Shown here: one piece after another, positions 3,160-18,725 of the stretch | Position numbering within the stretch: the first letter of the stretch is position 1 | How the letters are laid out: each line of letters starts with the position of its first letter | Source of the DNA: a virus | Taxonomy: Duplodnaviria > Heunggongvirae > Uroviricota > Caudoviricetes | Length of the DNA stretch: 20,256 nucleotides | Virus record (IMG/VR): IMGVR_UViG_2671180606_000002 | Direction: 5' to 3' (one strand) | Position numbers and translations under genes: made by a program | The notes under the pieces: model-generated | What the model was told of the DNA's origin: nothing | The model's database searches: none | The model's input: only the letters and a program-made list of their open reading frames with translations

Positions 3160-3624
3160 TTACTTTAAACACTGCTCGGTTATGTATTGCTGAGCACCTT
3201 CAAGTTGGGCCTGCATCATTACCAGTCGTTCCCGGAGGGTGAAATAATCCCGTTCAGCGGTGTCTGCCAGTCGGGGGGAGGCTGCATTATCCACGCCGGA
3301 GGCGGTGGTGGCTTCACGCACTGACTGACAGACTGCTTTGATGTGCAACCGACGACGACCAGCGGCAACATCATCACGCAGAGCATCATTTTCAGCTTTC
3401 GCATCAGCTAACTCCTTCGTGTATTTTGCATCGAGCGCAGCAACATCACGCTGACGCATCTGCATCTCAGTAATTGCCGCGTTCGCCAGCTTCAGTTCTC
3501 TGGCATTTTTGTCGCGCTGTTCTTTGTAGGCGATGGCGTTATCACGGTAATGATTAACACCCCATGACAGGCAGACGACGATGCAGATAACCAGAGCGGA
3601 GATAATCGCGGTTACTCTGCTCAT
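3160..3624 (-). CDS. Spanin inner-membrane subunit Rz (i-spanin)
   Basis: 154-aa ORF nearly identical in pattern to lambda Rz ([36 protein letters not shown]); start overlaps endolysin stop (ATGA at 3621..3624). Confidence 0.9.
3219..3404 (-). CDS. Spanin outer-membrane lipoprotein Rz1 (o-spanin), embedded in Rz in the +1 frame
   Basis: 61-aa ORF with lipobox LVVVGC and proline-rich body ([29 protein letters not shown]) as in lambda Rz1; ATG at 3404; nested wholly inside Rz. Confidence 0.85.
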
Positions 3625-4097
3625 ACCTCAATCTCTCTGACCGTTCCGCCAGCTTCTTTGAATTTTGCAATCAGACTGTCAGCCTTATGCTCGAACTGAC
3701 CATAACCAGCGCCCGGCAGTGAAGCCCATATATTGCTGCAACGGTCGATAGCCTGACGGATATCACCGCGATCAATCATCGGCAAAGCGCCACGCTCTTT
3801 AATCTGCTGCAGCGCTACAGCATCCTGACTTTCTGGAGAAAAATCTTTCAGGCCAAGTTGCTTGCGGTAGGCATCCCACCAGCGTGAAAGAAGCTGGTAA
3901 CGTCCAGCGGCTGTTGATTTGAGTTTCGGATTTAGCGTGACAAGTTTGCGGGGGTGATCGGAGTAATCAGTGAACAGTTCGCCACCGACAATAACATCAT
4001 AACCGTGATTTCTGGTTTTCTGCCGTCCGTTATCTGTTCCTTCTGACCATGCCACCATATCAAGGAAAGCTTTACGCTGGGAATTAAGTGTCTGCAT
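3621..4097 (-). CDS. Endolysin, lambda R-type lytic transglycosylase
   Basis: 158-aa ORF with strong resemblance to lambda R ([47 protein letters not shown]...); ATG at 4097, 4 nt after holin stop. Confidence 0.9.
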
Positions 4098-4100
4098 TAA

Positions 4101-4442
4101 TTACTCCTTATGGGCACCGAACTTGTTACCGATGACCCTCATTGCCGCACCACGAATAGCATCAACACCAATCAGCCCCACCCCACCACCAATGGCAACA
4201 GAAAGTGATTTAGGCCATCCGACATACTCAAGCGCGGATGCAAAGGTCAGCGTCAGAGCACCACAAAGCAGAATCTCAAGCGTTTTTCGTTTCCAGCCGC
4301 CGCCACCGCCAAAATAGGCAATGCGCAAACCAGCCATAATAATTGACATAACCACTGCACCCAGCGGCGTATCTCCACGCCACCAACTTTGTAAGAGTTC
4401 CAGTAAGTCAGGCCAGGAATGAGGGGCATTGTGCATTTTCAT
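4101..4442 (-). CDS. Class I holin with dual-start (M-K-M) motif
   Basis: Three hydrophobic segments; immediately upstream of endolysin; ATG codons at 4442 and 4436 encode MKM as in lambda S107/S105; GGAGGTGA Shine-Dalgarno upstream; six-frame ORF extends to a GTG at 4451. Confidence 0.8.
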   Translation of the reverse strand: MKMHNAPHSWPDLLELLQSWWRGDTPLGAVVMSIIMAGLRIAYFGGGGGWKRKTLEILLCGALTLTFASALEYVGWPKSLSVAIGGGVGLIGVDAIRGAAMRVIGNKFGAHKE

Positions 4443-4535: not shown

Positions 4536-4564
4536 CAACGAAAAAGCCCCGGGACATGCCGGGG
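4536..4564 (-). terminator. Rho-independent terminator between the moron gene and the holin gene
   Basis: GC hairpin CCCCGG-GACATG-CCGGGG (4547..4564); on the minus strand it is followed by CTTTTTCGTTGTT. Confidence 0.5.
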
Positions 4565-4659
4565 TCAGATGGAGTGCCAGATTAAGCTTCTGGCGGTATA
4601 TACTCGTGTTTGATATCGTTAAATCGCCAAAAGTAACAATTCAAACAAAGAGGATTTTT

Positions 4660-4821
4660 ATGTCTGAAAAAAACAAGCCACAAGATGAAAATAAACCTCA
4701 GCAACCCGTGGCACCAAAACCAACTCCAACACAAAGTACTACAGACTTTGCTACACGTCGTGTTTTTGTTGGAGATTCTGCCGACTCAGTCATTGAACAT
4801 ATAAAAAAACAGCCGAGATAA
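4660..4821 (+). CDS. Hypothetical small protein (53 aa, Pro/Gln-rich N-terminus), convergent with and overlapping the 3-prime end of the moron gene
   Basis: ATG at 4660 preceded by AAAGAGGA at good spacing; hydrophilic low-complexity product MSEKNKPQDENKPQQPVAPKPTPTQS...; no homology recognised, could be spurious. Confidence 0.3.
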   Translation: MSEKNKPQDENKPQQPVAPKPTPTQSTTDFATRRVFVGDSADSVIEHIKKQPR

Positions 4822-5359
4822 ACATCGCCGCTACCGGAGCAAGGATGGTATACATCCTTGCTTTATCGAGACTCGTGCGGATTTTCTCATTTTCCAACAG
4901 TAACTCTCTTGCTGTATCACTCAAGTCAACAAGGCGATACCTTCGTATAAGCGGCAATAACTTATCAGGTCCTAAATATCCTGCATCAGCGAATATTTTA
5001 AAGCTCGAGGGCTCCATATCCTTATATTTTTCATGATATAGATGATCAGGAGGGGCATTGATCAGGCCCCTAACCTTCACAGATAAACCAGTACATACCA
5101 AGTAAATGGCGCACCATGTCCATAGTAATGTAAATGTGGTAATTCCGGCGGTGAGAAAATCGAAATTAGTTTTCTGTGTCAGCAATAAAAAAGATGAACC
5201 AATTCCAACAATCTGAATGTTCAGAAGTTTGTATCCATTCTCAACATTGGTTTTGTTAGAAAGATGAATCTCTCGTATCGTCTCTTCCCCTTGTTTTTCA
5301 AGATAATCGACGAGCTCATCATCTACTCCTAAAAAATAATCTTTAGGTAGTTCTCTCAT
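4790..5359 (-). CDS. Membrane protein of unknown function in the Q-to-holin moron slot
   Basis: 189-aa ORF, ATG at 5359 with GGAGGTGA Shine-Dalgarno; at least two central transmembrane segments plus a hydrophobic C-terminus; low GC; bracketed by terminator hairpins at 5465..5497 and 4536..4564. Confidence 0.75.
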   Translation of the reverse strand: MRELPKDYFLGVDDELVDYLEKQGEETIREIHLSNKTNVENGYKLLNIQIVGIGSSFLLLTQKTNFDFLTAGITTFTLLWTWCAIYLVCTGLSVKVRGLINAPPDHLYHEKYKDMEPSSFKIFADAGYLGPDKLLPLIRRYRLVDLSDTARELLLENEKIRTSLDKARMYTILAPVAAMFISAVFLYVQ

Positions 5360-5380
5360 CTCACCTCCACATCCTGTACT

Positions 5381-5400
5381 GAAAACAATTTTACCAGAAT
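5381..5400 (-). promoter_or_regulatory. Candidate extended -10 promoter (TGGTAAAAT) for the moron gene
   Basis: Minus-strand TGGTAAAAT at 5396..5388, about 30 nt upstream of the ATG at 5359 and downstream of the tR-prime-like terminator; no good -35, so weak call. Confidence 0.3.
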
Positions 5401-5464
5401 GTCTCGATTCTAGGTATTCCGCCAGGAATCGCGCTCCAGAAATGAAACATCAGGTTCGCCAGTA

Positions 5465-5497
5465 CCAGAAACAACAAAACCCGCTCAATGGCGGGTT
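5465..5497 (-). terminator. Rho-independent terminator downstream of the Q-like gene (tR-prime-like position)
   Basis: Minus-strand ACCCGC-CATTGA-GCGGGT hairpin followed by TTTGTTGTTT; lies between the Q-like gene and the lysis region as lambda tR-prime does. Confidence 0.55.
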
Positions 5498-5580
5498 CTG
5501 GTAAAGTTCATGCGCTTGGTTCGCCTCGCGATACAGCTTTGCGAAGCATACCGGAATTGAAGCAGTTTATGCGTAAAAAA

Positions 5581-6123
5581 TCAAGCTATTTTTTGAGCAA
5601 ATGATTCTCGCATGGGAATATATAGGGCATACTCAGCAACAGCCAACCAATTAGCAATTCGCTTTTCGCATGTGCTAAAACACCACTCAGGATGTGCATC
5701 ATTTAGCAATTCAGCCATTTTGCGCTTAGTCATCCCCCGTCCTTCATACCGTTGCCGGAGGACACTAATCAATCCAGGATGCTCTGCCAGCACCTCACTT
5801 ATGACTCTATCAATACATAACGCCTCTGCATCAGTACAATGCGCCAGCCAGGTCTTTTGCTTGCCATTGATCATCTCTCGCAAAAACGCTTCCAGCTCAG
5901 GTTTCTCTATTCCCGCTTTTTTCATCCTGCGCAGGGCTTCATTGACGGCTGTTTTCGTCAATTTTTTGGATGCCAGCAACTGGTTAAACATATTTCCCGT
6001 CTTACCGCCGCCAATATACGACCAGCGCCCCCACATGCGCAGTTTTCCCTGAATCCAGACACTTTCCAGCGTGGTGAGACGAAGGTGTTCCCCGCTTTTG
6101 CCTGTATTTGTTGGGTAAATCAT
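5581..6123 (-). CDS. Putative late-gene antiterminator (Q-like), assigned mainly by position
   Basis: 180-aa product from ATG at 6123 (MIYPTNTGKSGEHL...), GAAAGGAAGG Shine-Dalgarno, start overlaps upstream stop (ATGA); Cys/His-containing C-terminus; last gene before the terminator and lysis cassette; family not confirmed. Confidence 0.55.
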   Translation of the reverse strand: MIYPTNTGKSGEHLRLTTLESVWIQGKLRMWGRWSYIGGGKTGNMFNQLLASKKLTKTAVNEALRRMKKAGIEKPELEAFLREMINGKQKTWLAHCTDAEALCIDRVISEVLAEHPGLISVLRQRYEGRGMTKRKMAELLNDAHPEWCFSTCEKRIANWLAVAEYALYIPMRESFAQKIA

Positions 6124-6410: not shown

Positions 6411-7009
6411 TACGCAAACTCCAGTAGTTGTGCGGCCACATTTTCAACTTCCTCCTGAGAGGAGAATTTACGGAACAGAATCCAGTTCCACAGCACATTC
6501 AGAACAGATTTATAAACCTGCTGAAACTCGGTTTCGTCCATATTCGCAAACGCGATGGATTTCGCCCTGCGCCCACGGCTACCGTCCGGATAAATATGCT
6601 CGGTGTAAAATCCGGCCTGAATGGTTACCCACTCGCGGAAAGCCTCAAACGACTTTAGCAATGCCGTATCCCGAGTTCTGCGTGTCGCAACTGTATTTAG
6701 ATATTGCTCTGCGGCATCACTCAGGGCTGGTGTGTGTTCCCGACCAACTGATTCGCACAAGTAATCCACGAAACCAGACAGCAGTTCTCGTTCGCGAGGT
6801 GTGATCGCCCCACCGACCGGAGTCCAGTAATCGAATCCCAGTTGCAGGAGTTTGAAAAAACGCTTGTGGAATGCGTAGTTACGCACACGCTTAAAGTCTG
6901 CGTGTATCCACTCACCTATTTTGATTTGATGCAGAAAATCGCAACTCTCCGGCGTCGCCGGGAGAAGTAAACCAGAAGAGGTTTGTTTGACCAGTTGTAT
7001 ATGCGCCAT
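6410..7009 (-). CDS. Phage nin-region protein, DUF1367-like
   Basis: 199-aa ORF with ATG at 7009; one-nucleotide start/stop overlap with the YbcO-like gene; family assignment from memory of the conserved N-terminal LVKxxSGLLLPATPE block. Confidence 0.65.
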   Translation of the reverse strand: MAHIQLVKQTSSGLLLPATPESCDFLHQIKIGEWIHADFKRVRNYAFHKRFFKLLQLGFDYWTPVGGAITPRERELLSGFVDYLCESVGREHTPALSDAAEQYLNTVATRRTRDTALLKSFEAFREWVTIQAGFYTEHIYPDGSRGRRAKSIAFANMDETEFQQVYKSVLNVLWNWILFRKFSSQEEVENVAAQLLEFA

Positions 7010-7289
7010 TTCTCAATCTCTCGATGGCGCAGCGCAGCAGATGCCAGTTGTTCAGGCTGACGAATAAAGTATAAATAAACTGGCTATGGTGTAAAGCCCC
7101 ACATAGCATGAACAAACACTACATATCAAATAGCTGGTACAAGGATAGAAATACGACATTTATTATTAAAAACGATTAGATAAATTACATTTTAATGTTA
7201 TGCAAAAGTTCTTTTTTATCATAACATTTCAATAAAAGCATTACAGATGCAATCATCCCGTCATCATCAATTATTTAAGGTGGTTAAAC

Positions 7290-7376
7290 ATGGAAAATAA
7301 CAAGTTCGCACATCTCGCTCCTTTTTTATCCGTAATCCTTTTCGCTTGTTGTTTTATATGGGCATTATTTTTATAA
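7290..7376 (+). CDS. Candidate small hydrophobic peptide (28 aa) in the AT-rich spacer
   Basis: ATG at 7290 preceded by AAGGTGG; product MENNKFAHLAPFLSVILFACCFIWALFL has a charged N-terminus and one predicted transmembrane helix, the shape of small membrane proteins or type I toxins; no homology recognised. Confidence 0.3.
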   Translation: MENNKFAHLAPFLSVILFACCFIWALFL

Positions 7377-7450
7377 AGTAGCCACATGATAAGTTGCTGG
7401 AATCATATTTCCCACTCAAGTCATTAACATTTGATAAGATATATCTAAAA

Positions 7451-7509
7451 GGACACCTTTACATTATTTATGTGTATATAATTTATTTATATACACAGTA
7501 AAGGTATCC
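7451..7509. repeat. Long imperfect palindrome with a perfect 10-bp core inverted repeat (TGTGTATATA-N7-TATATACACA)
   Basis: Core arms at 7471..7480 and 7488..7497 are exact reverse complements; outer arms GGACACCTTTAC (7451..7462) and GTAAAGGTATCC (7498..7509) pair with one mismatch. Confidence 0.6.
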
Positions 7510-7776
7510 TGGGAAAATATTTATCGTTAAAAAATACATCATAAATAATTAAGCTGAAATTTCAGAACACAACTAATACACACAATAAGGTTCAGTAACA
7601 ATAATCTATGTGGACTACATCGAGATTTTTTGATTAAACTTTAATAACTTATTCCTAACACACAGAATGCATAAACTAAAAGTAAAACAAATAGTTATAC
7701 GAAAAACAACCATATTTATTATATCTTCTCCTCTAATCAACATATCAATTATGTGTTTCATAACAGCTTGACATAA

Positions 7777-7815
7777 CCCTCAAAAACACGCATTTATAAT
7801 GCATGTTTTTGAGGG
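7777..7815. promoter_or_regulatory. NsrR-box-like palindrome over the -10 and ribosome-binding region of the yeaR-like gene
   Basis: 17-bp inverted arms CCCTCAAAAACACGCAT / ATGCATGTTTTTGAGGG (one mismatch) around TTATA; core AACACGCATTT-A-TAATGCATGTT (7785..7807) matches my recalled 11-1-11 NsrR consensus with about 2 mismatches; TATAAT at 7795..7800; TTGACA at 7768..7773 is 21 bp upstream. Confidence 0.45.
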
Positions 7816-7822
7816 GGTGGTT

Positions 7823-8161
7823 ATGACACACAAGAGAATTCCTAAAGATTGGGTAATCAAACGCTCAACTCCGTTCTTCACAAAAGAGAACGTACCTTCA
7901 GCGTTATTAACACATCATAATACAGCAGCAGGTGTTTTTGGGCAGTTGTGCGTAATGGAAGGCACTGTAACATATTATGGTTTTACTGATGAGAATGCTA
8001 CTGAACCGGAGATAAAAGTAGTCATTAATGCTGGCGCTTTTGCAACAAGCCCACCACAATACTGGCACCGTGTTGAACTAAGCGATGATGCTCAGTTTAA
8101 TATTAACTTTTGGGTCGCTCCAGACTTCTCGGGCGAAAAAGTCTATAGCACCAAAAAATAG
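7823..8161 (+). CDS. YeaR-like protein (DUF1971, TehB N-terminal-like domain)
   Basis: 112-aa product from ATG at 7823 (GAGGGGGTGG Shine-Dalgarno); conserved blocks RSTPFF..P......H.T..G....L.V..G.V.Y.G..DE...EP.......AG.FA..PP..WH.......D..FNI.F.VAP align by eye to E. coli YeaR. Confidence 0.8.
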   Translation: MTHKRIPKDWVIKRSTPFFTKENVPSALLTHHNTAAGVFGQLCVMEGTVTYYGFTDENATEPEIKVVINAGAFATSPPQYWHRVELSDDAQFNINFWVAPDFSGEKVYSTKK

Positions 8162-8923: not shown

Positions 8924-11297
<2,374 letters not shown>

Positions 11298-11390: not shown

Positions 11391-11550
11391 TGATTTAGTT
11401 CCTAGGGATAAGCAGAAATCTAGCACTGGATTAAAATTTAAAAATAATAATCAATAGGTTATAATGGTTTTTATTCGCATCCATGGGATCTGCTGCTGCC
11501 CGCATGATGTTGGATGCGACGGCGCTGGCACGACCTCACCCGGTGAAACG

Positions 11551-11996
11551 ATGAAACGCGAAAGGGTTGTTCTTCGGGAAGGTGCAGTTGGACTTTCAAT
11601 CGATGACGTTGCAAAAGAGGCTGGCGTCAGTAAGGCAACGGTAATGTACGATCATAAGTCAAAGCAAGATTTGCTCAGCGATCTCATCAGTCGCCTTATG
11701 CCAGTAGAGGAGGAACGTGTTCAGCAAGCGATAGCGGAAAGTAATAATACCCCCACATCCCGCACTCTATGGGCGAATTATTTCAGCCAGTAATGCTCTC
11801 AGTCATACTGAGAGAGCAGTAGTGCTGGCGGTCAGCGAATCGTTAACTAACGATACGAATATCAGGGACACCATGCGTTCCTGCACAAACAAAGATTTGG
11901 ATGAGATAAAAAGAGGACCAAAACCAGACGTTGCCGTCCTGGTATATTTGGCGTTATCTGGTATCTACTGCCAAGAATTTTTTGATTTTTACAAAT
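11551..11996 (+). pseudogene. TetR-family transcriptional regulator, disrupted by frameshift (N-terminal HTH 11551..11793; C-terminal remainder continues in +1 frame to about 11996)
   Basis: N-terminal frame has a TetR-type HTH (LSIDDVAKEAGVSKATVMYDHKSKQDLL) and stops after 80 aa; the next frame continues ALSHTERAVVLAVSESLTNDT...LVYLALSGIYCQEFFDFYK without its own start; TATAAT at 11460..11465 upstream. Confidence 0.55.
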
Positions 11997-18328: not shown

Positions 18329-18523
18329 ATGAGATATGACAATGTTAAACCATGTCCATTTTGTGGTTGTCCATCAGTAACGGTGAAAGCCATTTCAGGA
18401 TATTACCGAGCGAAGTGTAACGGATGCGAATCCCGAACCGGTTATGGTGGAAGTGAAAAAGAAGCACTCGAAAGATGGAATAAACGAACCACTGGAAATA
18501 ATAATGGAGGTGTTCATGTATAA
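18329..18523 (+). CDS. ralR: Restriction alleviation protein RalR (Lar-like)
   Basis: 64-aa Cys-rich product MRYDNVKPCPFCGCPSVTVKAISGYYRAKCNGCESRTGYGG...; start chosen at ATG 18329 to match RalR length. Confidence 0.8.
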   Translation: MRYDNVKPCPFCGCPSVTVKAISGYYRAKCNGCESRTGYGGSEKEALERWNKRTTGNNNGGVHV

Positions 18524-18725
18524 AATTACCGCCACTATTGAAAAGGAAGGTGGCACTCCTACTAACTGGACAAGATATTCAAAATCTAAACTAACGAAAT
18601 CAGAATGCGAAAAAATGCTCTCAGGTAAAAAAGAAGCAGGCGTTTCCAGAGAGCAGAAAGTAAAACTGATAAATTTTAATTGCGAGAAACTTCAGTCCTC
18701 GAGAATTGCATTGTATTCAAATTAA
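18516..18725 (+). CDS. ydaC: Rac prophage protein YdaC
   Basis: 69-aa product from ATG at 18516 with GGAGGTG Shine-Dalgarno (MYKITATIEKEGGTPTNWTRYSK...); overlaps ralR stop. Confidence 0.75.
   Translation: MYKITATIEKEGGTPTNWTRYSKSKLTKSECEKMLSGKKEAGVSREQKVKLINFNCEKLQSSRIALYSN

Follow-up and report, generated by a model that had tools for sequence, protein, structure and literature searches.

Introduction

Lambdoid phages carry morons, in the sense of Juhala and Hendrix, of which gp15 of HK97, bor and lom of lambda, and stx in the slot between Q and S are examples. Exclusion genes such as rexAB, sieB and HK97 gp15 sit in moron slots and next to the repressor, and RexB is a multi-pass inner-membrane protein. 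Among toxin-antitoxin (TA) systems, the type I pairs txpA/RatA and bsrG/SR4 of Bacillus prophages have convergent transcripts that overlap at their 3' ends, and hok/sok is known to exclude T4. In the Pycsar system, PycTM is described as a membrane-disrupting effector of abortive infection (PMC11224242). In this study, we analysed the IMG/VR virus record IMGVR_UViG_2671180606_000002 (Caudoviricetes), a stretch of 20,256 nucleotides (nt) that we call the window, and in particular a gene for a predicted inner-membrane protein of 189 amino acids (aa) located between the late antiterminator gene Q and the holin gene. A sequence-only reading had described this gene as a single autonomous moron. We found instead that it has an almost obligate convergent partner, and we regard it as very probable that the two genes make up one convergent cassette. 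Tentatively, we propose that this cassette acts at the membrane as a defence or TA-like module.

A convergent partner gene

The membrane-protein gene (hereafter the large gene) spans 4790..5359 on the minus strand, starts with ATG and encodes a predicted three-helix protein of PHROG 11870 (6e-108). Facing it on the plus strand, an open reading frame (ORF) with an ATG start at 4660..4821 encodes a hydrophilic protein of 53 aa, rich in proline, lysine and glutamine, that belongs to PHROG 14506 (2.4e-31). This small gene overlaps the last 32 nt of the large gene and is preceded by the Shine-Dalgarno sequence AAGAGGA at 4648-4654. RefSeq annotates it in a longer form of 71 aa with a start at 4606 (WP_224729395), and a counterpart has been annotated independently in an unrelated phage record.

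The pairing of the two genes proved to be nearly universal. We found the small ORF in 12 of the 13 other loci checked, which include genomes and phages, and in all 40 distinct variants represented by 80 viral contigs, where identity of the large protein goes down to 50%. In the viral variants the small ORF is always convergent, with an overlap of 20-35 nt, and the range over all loci is 9-35 nt. In a metagenomic lambdoid phage and in Pasteurellaceae, where the pair occupies other slots, the small ORF also accompanies large proteins that are only distantly homologous (29-35% identity). Even a very remote member from a soil metagenome has a proline-rich convergent ORF at the matching place, which is perhaps the small gene.

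Differences between small-gene sequences amount to 600, 514 and 943 at the first, second and third codon positions, and pairwise dN/dS values range from 0.08 to 0.54. This third-position excess, together with the low dN/dS, indicates that the small ORF is a protein-coding gene under purifying selection and not a by-product. Its homologues, of 45-53 aa, share the pattern MS..NKP..E.KPQ.P...KP.P....F...R..VGDSA(D/E)...KK.K, and the small proteins of L079, L017, L092 and L101 contain runs of three to five prolines (for instance APPPPPRDF, STPPPVPQP and QPPPPPRIPP). Proline runs need EF-P to be translated, so that production of the small protein may respond with unusual sensitivity to the condition of the translation machinery.

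Upstream of the small gene, a block of 29 nt at 4609..4637 on the plus strand, TTTGATATCGTTAAATCGCCAAAAGTAAC, is conserved in most loci to a higher degree than either coding sequence. Differing reading frames cross this block in different loci, and it must therefore be non-coding; we consider it a candidate promoter or operator of the small gene. Identity of the window with L089, which has the same holin and a 58%-identical cassette, ends inside the block. Hence, the block is also a recombination junction, and it appears to act as a linker through which alleles of the cassette are swapped. As promoters of the small gene, TTGATA-18-TAACAA and TTAAAT were both rejected as poor matches.

Between the downstream terminator of the large gene and the conserved block lies an inverted repeat, GCCAGA-N7-TCTGGC (4576..4594, plus strand), whose arms vary in other loci (GCCGCC/GGCGGC). 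Its 3' arm forms part of an 11-mer, CTGGCGGWATA, found exactly once upstream of each cassette gene and in the same relative orientation (4590-4600 on the plus strand and 5415-5425 on the minus strand). With three further copies that carry one mismatch, the window holds five, against 0.42 expected, and the 11-mer recalls lambda operator half-sites. We dropped it as a shared operator because other loci do not preserve the copy ahead of the large gene. Rfam holds no family for the intergenic block or for the hairpins. In the metagenomic lambdoid phage L012, which encodes the distant homologue P0130, two direct repeats, TTATAAGTTGTGGTTACAAC and TTATAAGTTGTGGTAACAAG, precede the small gene, and a ribbon-helix-helix gene lies on the same strand (6700-6840 and 6838-7005, minus strand). 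This arrangement suggests a dedicated repressor of the small gene in the L012 lineage.

An RNA hairpin within the large gene

An RNA hairpin of 10-14 base pairs on the small-gene strand (4836..4864, plus strand; arms 4836-4847 and 4853-4864) starts 15 nt past the stop of the small ORF. It is written into codons ~165-176 of the large gene (..RARMYTILAP..) and was present, in the same register, in every locus that we folded. Its mean folding energy is -19.1 kcal/mol on the small-gene strand, compared with -13.9 kcal/mol on the complementary strand and -9.6 kcal/mol for random synonymous recodings. In 29 of 45 distinct loci, 1% of the recodings or fewer were equally stable.

Covariation was assessed on a gapless alignment of 31 distinct sequences, using as controls 500 shuffles and pairings in which the partner had been slid by 1-3 columns. 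Bases were paired in 86.6% of the hairpin cells of the alignment, against 41-46% in the slid controls. Compensatory double changes occurred in 6 of the 14 pairs (54 cells), and none of the 500 shuffles reached the observed covariation score. G-U pairs are frequent in the hairpin and would be A-C mismatches on the opposite strand. Moreover, the hairpin is lost in a Salmonella variant that lacks the small gene. The strand-biased stability, the G-U pairs and this joint loss all indicate that the hairpin belongs to the RNA of the small gene. There, it may function as a 3'-end or stability element, as a weak terminator, or as the stem-loop through which the sense and antisense RNAs make first contact.

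The large protein and its family

The large gene stands out by its composition, with a G+C content (GC) of 0.38-0.41 compared with 0.47-0.51 in the flanking Q and holin/lysozyme genes. We collected 104 homologues, nearly all of exactly 189 aa, from Escherichia, Klebsiella, Citrobacter, Serratia, Yersinia, Salmonella, Morganella, Providencia, Proteus and Pantoea. Their alignment has 28 invariant columns, and across Enterobacterales the protein is under purifying selection. Homologues occur in Pasteurellaceae as well. When 1.8 billion cluster representatives were searched exhaustively with a profile, only 100 related clusters came up, all of ~160-200 aa. The family is small and compact.

The AlphaFold2 model of the protein (predicted local distance difference test, pLDDT, 82) has long helices at residues 14-62, 68-92 and 134-188. 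In the hydropathy profile, windows 76-94 and 167-189 exceed the threshold, and 45-62 is the least hydrophobic segment. Hydropathy and the distribution of charges fit membrane segments at about 45-62, 68-92 and 169-188, with the N terminus and the loop 93-168, rich in lysine and arginine, predicted to be cytoplasmic. The protein would then consist of two long cytoplasmic helices beside three membrane helices. This topology agrees with the membrane protein announced by the sequence-only reading; the profile searches that it had also called for led to no functional family. PHROG 11870 is annotated as of unknown function, and PDB sequences searched with a profile contained no significant match. 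Weak hits to Pfam 8xMP, YLATT and Holin_BhlA were all below threshold and were discarded. Literature on the protein accession, on cargo between Q and holin and on defence genes of Rac-like prophages yielded nothing on the family, one 2025 E. coli prophage-defence screen not being covered.

A lead towards function came from a distant member, P0130, which belongs to the family by a full-length match to its profile (E = 1.6e-21). When 48 distant members were checked against effector models, P0130 was the one match: it aligns over its full length with the PADLOC PycTM model (PDLC02364, 1.5e-8) and also matches the CBASS 2TM effector model (4e-5). We take this link of the large-protein family to PycTM as a lead and not as a classification. 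In the P0130 phage, the small convergent gene lies alongside and there is no cyclase.

The large gene is frameshifted or truncated in a fair number of copies (L008, L009, L010; P0033, P0084, P0095-P0104). In Leclercia (L008), the large gene is broken and the small gene is intact at 90% identity. Either selection against the large protein or the usual decay of prophages could account for such broken copies.

Mobility of the cassette

To judge from its distribution, the mobile unit is the gene pair, which behaves as a moron. Its carriers are temperate phages of Enterobacterales and Pasteurellaceae, and the pair occupies as a unit at least three phage slots: between Q and holin, next to a repressor, and in a tail-gene cluster. 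Slots such as these hold the cargo that temperate phages express in the lysogen. Holin/endolysin genes follow immediately downstream in at least 30 of the 40 distinct viral variants, and the flanks of the cassette comprise at least three reference types of Q and at least five of holin/endolysin. One group of variants, with L073, has the cassette among clustered tail genes, where it follows the genes for the tail terminator, the tail tube, DUF6246 and Rha. Distant members L012-14 and L104/105 lie just downstream of a cI-type repressor gene, on the same strand, and L103 adjoins a P2-type C repressor. One further distant member was found in the early/replication region of a Pasteurellaceae prophage. 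In the sibling Rac-like phage vB_EcoS-683R6, which shares the Q of the window, tRNA-Thr/tRNA-Gly and a different holin come next, and the slot has no cassette. Altogether, the compositional deviation, the tRNAs in the slot of the sibling, the other slots elsewhere, and the conserved -10 element and terminators described below bear out the cargo status that the gene had been given.

Expression signals

Two signals of the large gene can be read from the sequence on the minus strand: an extended -10-like element, TGGTAAAAT, at 5388..5396, and the Shine-Dalgarno sequence GGAGG at 5364..5368, 4 nt ahead of the ATG (5359). The motif TAAAAT recurs 34-42 nt 5' of the ATG in ~38 of 45 distinct upstream regions, a recurrence that spans three genomic slots. 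It is preceded by ..TTCAGG/TTCTGG, and a terminator hairpin always lies upstream. With this recurrence, the proposed promoter of the large gene gains real comparative support. The element has no -35 and fails a sigma-70 consensus scan.

A terminator scan detected a hairpin with a T tract upstream of the large gene (5475..5500, minus strand). The same stretch is common to phages with the same Q and other cargo, and homology with phage pPE4, which carries a 53%-identical allele of the cassette, stops near 5441. For these reasons, the hairpin is most simply explained as a tR'-type terminator of the Q-dependent late leader and not as part of the cargo, and we assign it probably to that role. Downstream, the transcription unit of the large gene is bounded by an intrinsic terminator (scan hairpin 4564..4547, feature 4539..4564, minus strand), which sits beyond the entire small gene. 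Because of this position, the transcription unit of the large gene runs antisense across the small gene and its control region. A G+C-rich hairpin with an A/T tract occupies the equivalent place in most homologous loci. Terminator-like hairpins in the region number four, against 2.5 +/- 1.7 expected from shuffled sequences, which is not above chance; the support for both flanking terminators comes from their conservation in homologous loci and not from their count.

Every feature listed in the sequence-only reading was present, and several of its claims hold as made: a low-GC membrane-protein gene, a strong ribosome-binding site (5368..5364) and a place between Q and holin. Other claims held in part. 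The weak extended -10 without -35 exists and is conserved, and it does not pass the consensus scan. Terminators are found on both sides of the gene, where 5465..5497 and 4536..4564 had been named; the upstream one is probably tR' and the downstream one lies past a second gene. It was this position, along with the small gene (4660..4821, plus strand) and the hairpin at 4836-4864, that had been missed.

Prophage context

The window is a complete Rac-like prophage of E. coli. Several E. coli chromosomes contain the 1.3 kb around the large gene with 100% identity, and 223 of 5,426 complete E. coli genomes (~4%) have 80% of it or more. Induced phages such as vB_EcoS-666R9 match the same region with 99.6% identity. 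On the minus strand, the gene order is DUF1367, DUF1364, Q, the large gene, holin, GH24 lysozyme, Rz/Rz1 and trkG. Upstream and outside the cassette, the backbone gene Q is of the DUF1133 type (5581..6123, minus strand; RefSeq; Pfam DUF1133 5e-109, Phage_antitermQ 4.5e-6) and also falls in PHROG 753, anti-termination Q-like. The downstream backbone gene is the lambda-family holin S (4101..4442, minus strand; RefSeq; Pfam Phage_holin_3_1 2e-27), followed by lysozyme (3621-4097), Rz/Rz1 (3160-3624) and trkG. In the 3' end of Q, TTGGCT-18-TATATT (5617..5646, minus strand) was the best sigma-70-like match of the consensus scan, and lambdoid genome organisation makes it a candidate for the late promoter pR'.

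Other parts of the window also carry cargo-like or toxin-antitoxin elements. An antitoxin small RNA (sRNA), RalA, at 18522-18700 on the minus strand (Rfam RF02694, 225 bits), belongs to the type I TA system RalR/RalA of Rac, and this match confirms the Rac identity of the prophage. In the nin-like region (8924-11297, minus strand), a three-gene operon of low GC (0.32-0.36) encodes a SIR2 protein (PADLOC ThsA-type SIR2, 9e-32), a Ham1/RdgB-type XTP/dITP diphosphatase and an adenosine deaminase (7e-36 to the deaminase part of CARF_ADA). A TetR-like gene at 11464-11793 is divergent from it. This operon looks like a candidate nucleotide-targeting defence island, and none of the complete systems known to PADLOC corresponds to it. 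Between the DUF1367 gene and the SIR2 operon, positions 7000-8161 are a probable further cargo insertion, with a very AT-rich stretch (GC 0.26-0.35 at 7200-7800) followed by a plus-strand DUF1971/TehB-N-like gene at 7799-8161.

Discussion

In our preferred reading, to which we give somewhat less than an even chance, the cassette is a membrane-acting module of the defence or TA-like kind. The transcript of the large gene would run antisense through all of the small gene and its control region, as far as the terminator at 4564-4547, and that of the small gene would run antisense into the last ~25 codons of the large gene, including the conserved hairpin. In the lysogen, the weak promoter of the large gene and the promoter of the small gene would both be active, with the small gene restraining the large one by RNA complementarity, transcriptional interference, its protein product, or some combination of these. 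Upon failure of this restraint, the membrane protein would accumulate and perturb the inner membrane, either by depolarisation or by blocking DNA entry. Two triggers can be envisaged. A superinfecting phage might shut off host transcription or translation, as in the exclusion logic of hok/sok, or Q-driven late transcription might read through the cassette and silence the small gene. The outcome would be exclusion or abortive infection, and such a role of the 189-aa protein is plausible. The near-universal pairing makes this TA-like reading likelier than a simple exclusion protein.

Taken further, the cassette could represent an unrecognised and widespread prophage immunity module. Here, a dual-function antisense gene, which provides both a structured RNA and a proline-rich protein of 45-53 aa, would hold in check a three-helix effector distantly like PycTM, and the module would fire when an incoming phage disturbs transcription or translation, or when late transcription of the prophage itself overruns the antisense gene. 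We consider this joint reading possible and rather doubtful.

Several observations weigh against a defence or TA-like module. For the large protein itself, PADLOC, Pfam and NCBIfam contain no matching model, and fold searches in BFVD and PDB give only generic long-helix bundles, with no significant specific match. The similarity to PycTM rests on one member: the eight nearest relatives of P0130 give no PycTM match, and P0130 scores 16.1 against Pfam PycTM (PF18967), below the curated cut-off of 27.2. The Salmonella variant without the small gene is widespread and encodes a large protein of 192 aa with a different C terminus; the partner is thus not absolutely required for carriage. In the conserved block, where none passes the scan, no convincing sigma-70 promoter could be assigned to the small gene. 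The hairpin has no canonical U tract, which makes its label as a terminator uncertain. Finally, loci L016 and L017 do not have the TAAAAT element. Lacking a -10 element of their own and lying behind a terminator, they would be expressible only by late, antiterminated read-through. The partner-less Salmonella variant, the fact that nothing points directly to toxicity, and the prevalence of lysis-proximal positions keep three alternatives in play, namely an entry blocker, a lysis-timing accessory and an addiction module.

As an entry blocker, the 189-aa protein would provide non-toxic superinfection exclusion, stopping phage DNA in the manner of P22 SieA, T4 Imm or HK97 gp15, and the small gene would only tune its level. 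We consider this unlikely. The predicted inner-membrane location agrees with it, as do the repressor-adjacent and moron slots, one of them in a tail cluster like that of HK97 gp15, and the persistence of the Salmonella variant without the small gene argues against strong toxicity. However, exclusion proteins of this kind need, to our knowledge, no partner, whereas the pairing is nearly universal here and the elaborate overlap with its embedded hairpin is conserved. Furthermore, we found no similarity of the 189-aa protein to SieA, SieB, Imm or gp15, be it in sequence (Pfam, including any Sie/Imm family, and PHROG) or in fold (BFVD and PDB).

The position of at least three quarters of the viral variants directly ahead of the lysis genes suits an accessory of lysis timing, a reading that we find distinctly improbable. 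The large gene would mainly be expressed late, by Q-modified polymerase reading through from pR', with the small gene keeping it silent until then, and its product would modulate holin triggering as an antiholin-like or depolarising helper. Membrane depolarisation is a trigger of holins, and the promoterless loci L016 and L017, just behind a terminator, also fit. Against such a function, the cassette is also found at a distance from the lysis genes, whether near repressors, in early regions or within a tail cluster, and related phages lyse without it. The 189-aa protein matches no holin or antiholin family in Pfam or PHROG, and a canonical holin follows at 4101-4442.

A similarly low probability attaches to a selfish addiction module, that is, a type I-like TA pair that stabilises the prophage or propagates itself with no anti-phage role. 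The convergent antisense layout with 3' overlap resembles txpA/RatA and bsrG/SR4, databases contain many truncated copies of the large gene, and the same prophage carries RalR/RalA. On the other hand, the toxin would be unusually large and the presumed antitoxin RNA encodes a conserved protein, and the classical exclusion slots suggest a benefit to the lysogen; addiction and defence are not mutually exclusive. Very improbable, lastly, is a single autonomous membrane-protein moron with a non-functional by-product on the opposite strand: the large gene does have its own -10 element, Shine-Dalgarno sequence and flanking terminators, but the small ORF shows conservation at the protein level even in loci whose large protein has only 50% identity, its upstream block and hairpin are conserved as well, and both RefSeq and a phage record annotate it independently.

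Both proteins of the cassette are annotated only as hypothetical, and neither figures in the PADLOC (2023) defence library. If the proposed exclusion or abortive-infection module is true, it would be a compact and easily cloned (~0.9 kb) addition to prophage defences. In addition, it would provide a clear example of coupling between sense and antisense genes, with selection on RNA structure written into the codons of a membrane protein. Whatever the function, our results indicate that reading a moron as a single gene can miss small partners on the opposite strand.

With regard to known systems, the large protein can be compared with PycTM and the CBASS 2TM effectors, which are small proteins of ~160-190 aa with a hairpin of membrane helices and flanking helices and are thought to disrupt the membrane (PMC11224242). 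It differs from them in that the window protein and its close relatives match neither model in Pfam or PADLOC, and in that its partner is a gene for a 45-53-aa protein and an antisense RNA instead of a signalling enzyme. Among the called or annotated genes of the listed loci there is no nucleotide cyclase (PycC), the neighbours in viral loci having been typed only against Q, holin and lysin references.

The cassette would share with type I TA systems the convergent units, RNAs predicted to be complementary at the 3' end of a membrane-protein mRNA, a structured antisense partner and a location in prophages. Its candidate toxin, however, has 189 aa instead of fewer than 60, and its antisense gene encodes a protein under purifying selection; the type I definition, a small hydrophobic toxin with a non-coding RNA antitoxin, does not describe it. 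Similarly, distant members of the family occupy the classical rex/sie position downstream of a cI-type gene, as do rexAB of lambda and sieB of P22 and lambda. Unlike these, the cassette has no sequence relation to them and no RexA-like sensor, and in phages of Enterobacterales it resides mostly in the Q-holin slot.

No sequence similarity was found between the cassette and any characterised moron product. In its organisation, the cassette is like morons in being extra DNA between backbone genes, with deviating GC, a promoter-like element and a terminator, and in being absent from sibling phages and present in several alternative slots. HK97 gp15, too, is an inner-membrane protein, of the exclusion kind, in a tail-gene slot. 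The cassette differs from these morons in being a fixed, convergent and overlapping pair with an RNA hairpin embedded in its coding sequence. Should the immunity module outlined above exist, with the same doubt attached, it would combine the logic of type I and type II TA systems in the form of a portable moron.

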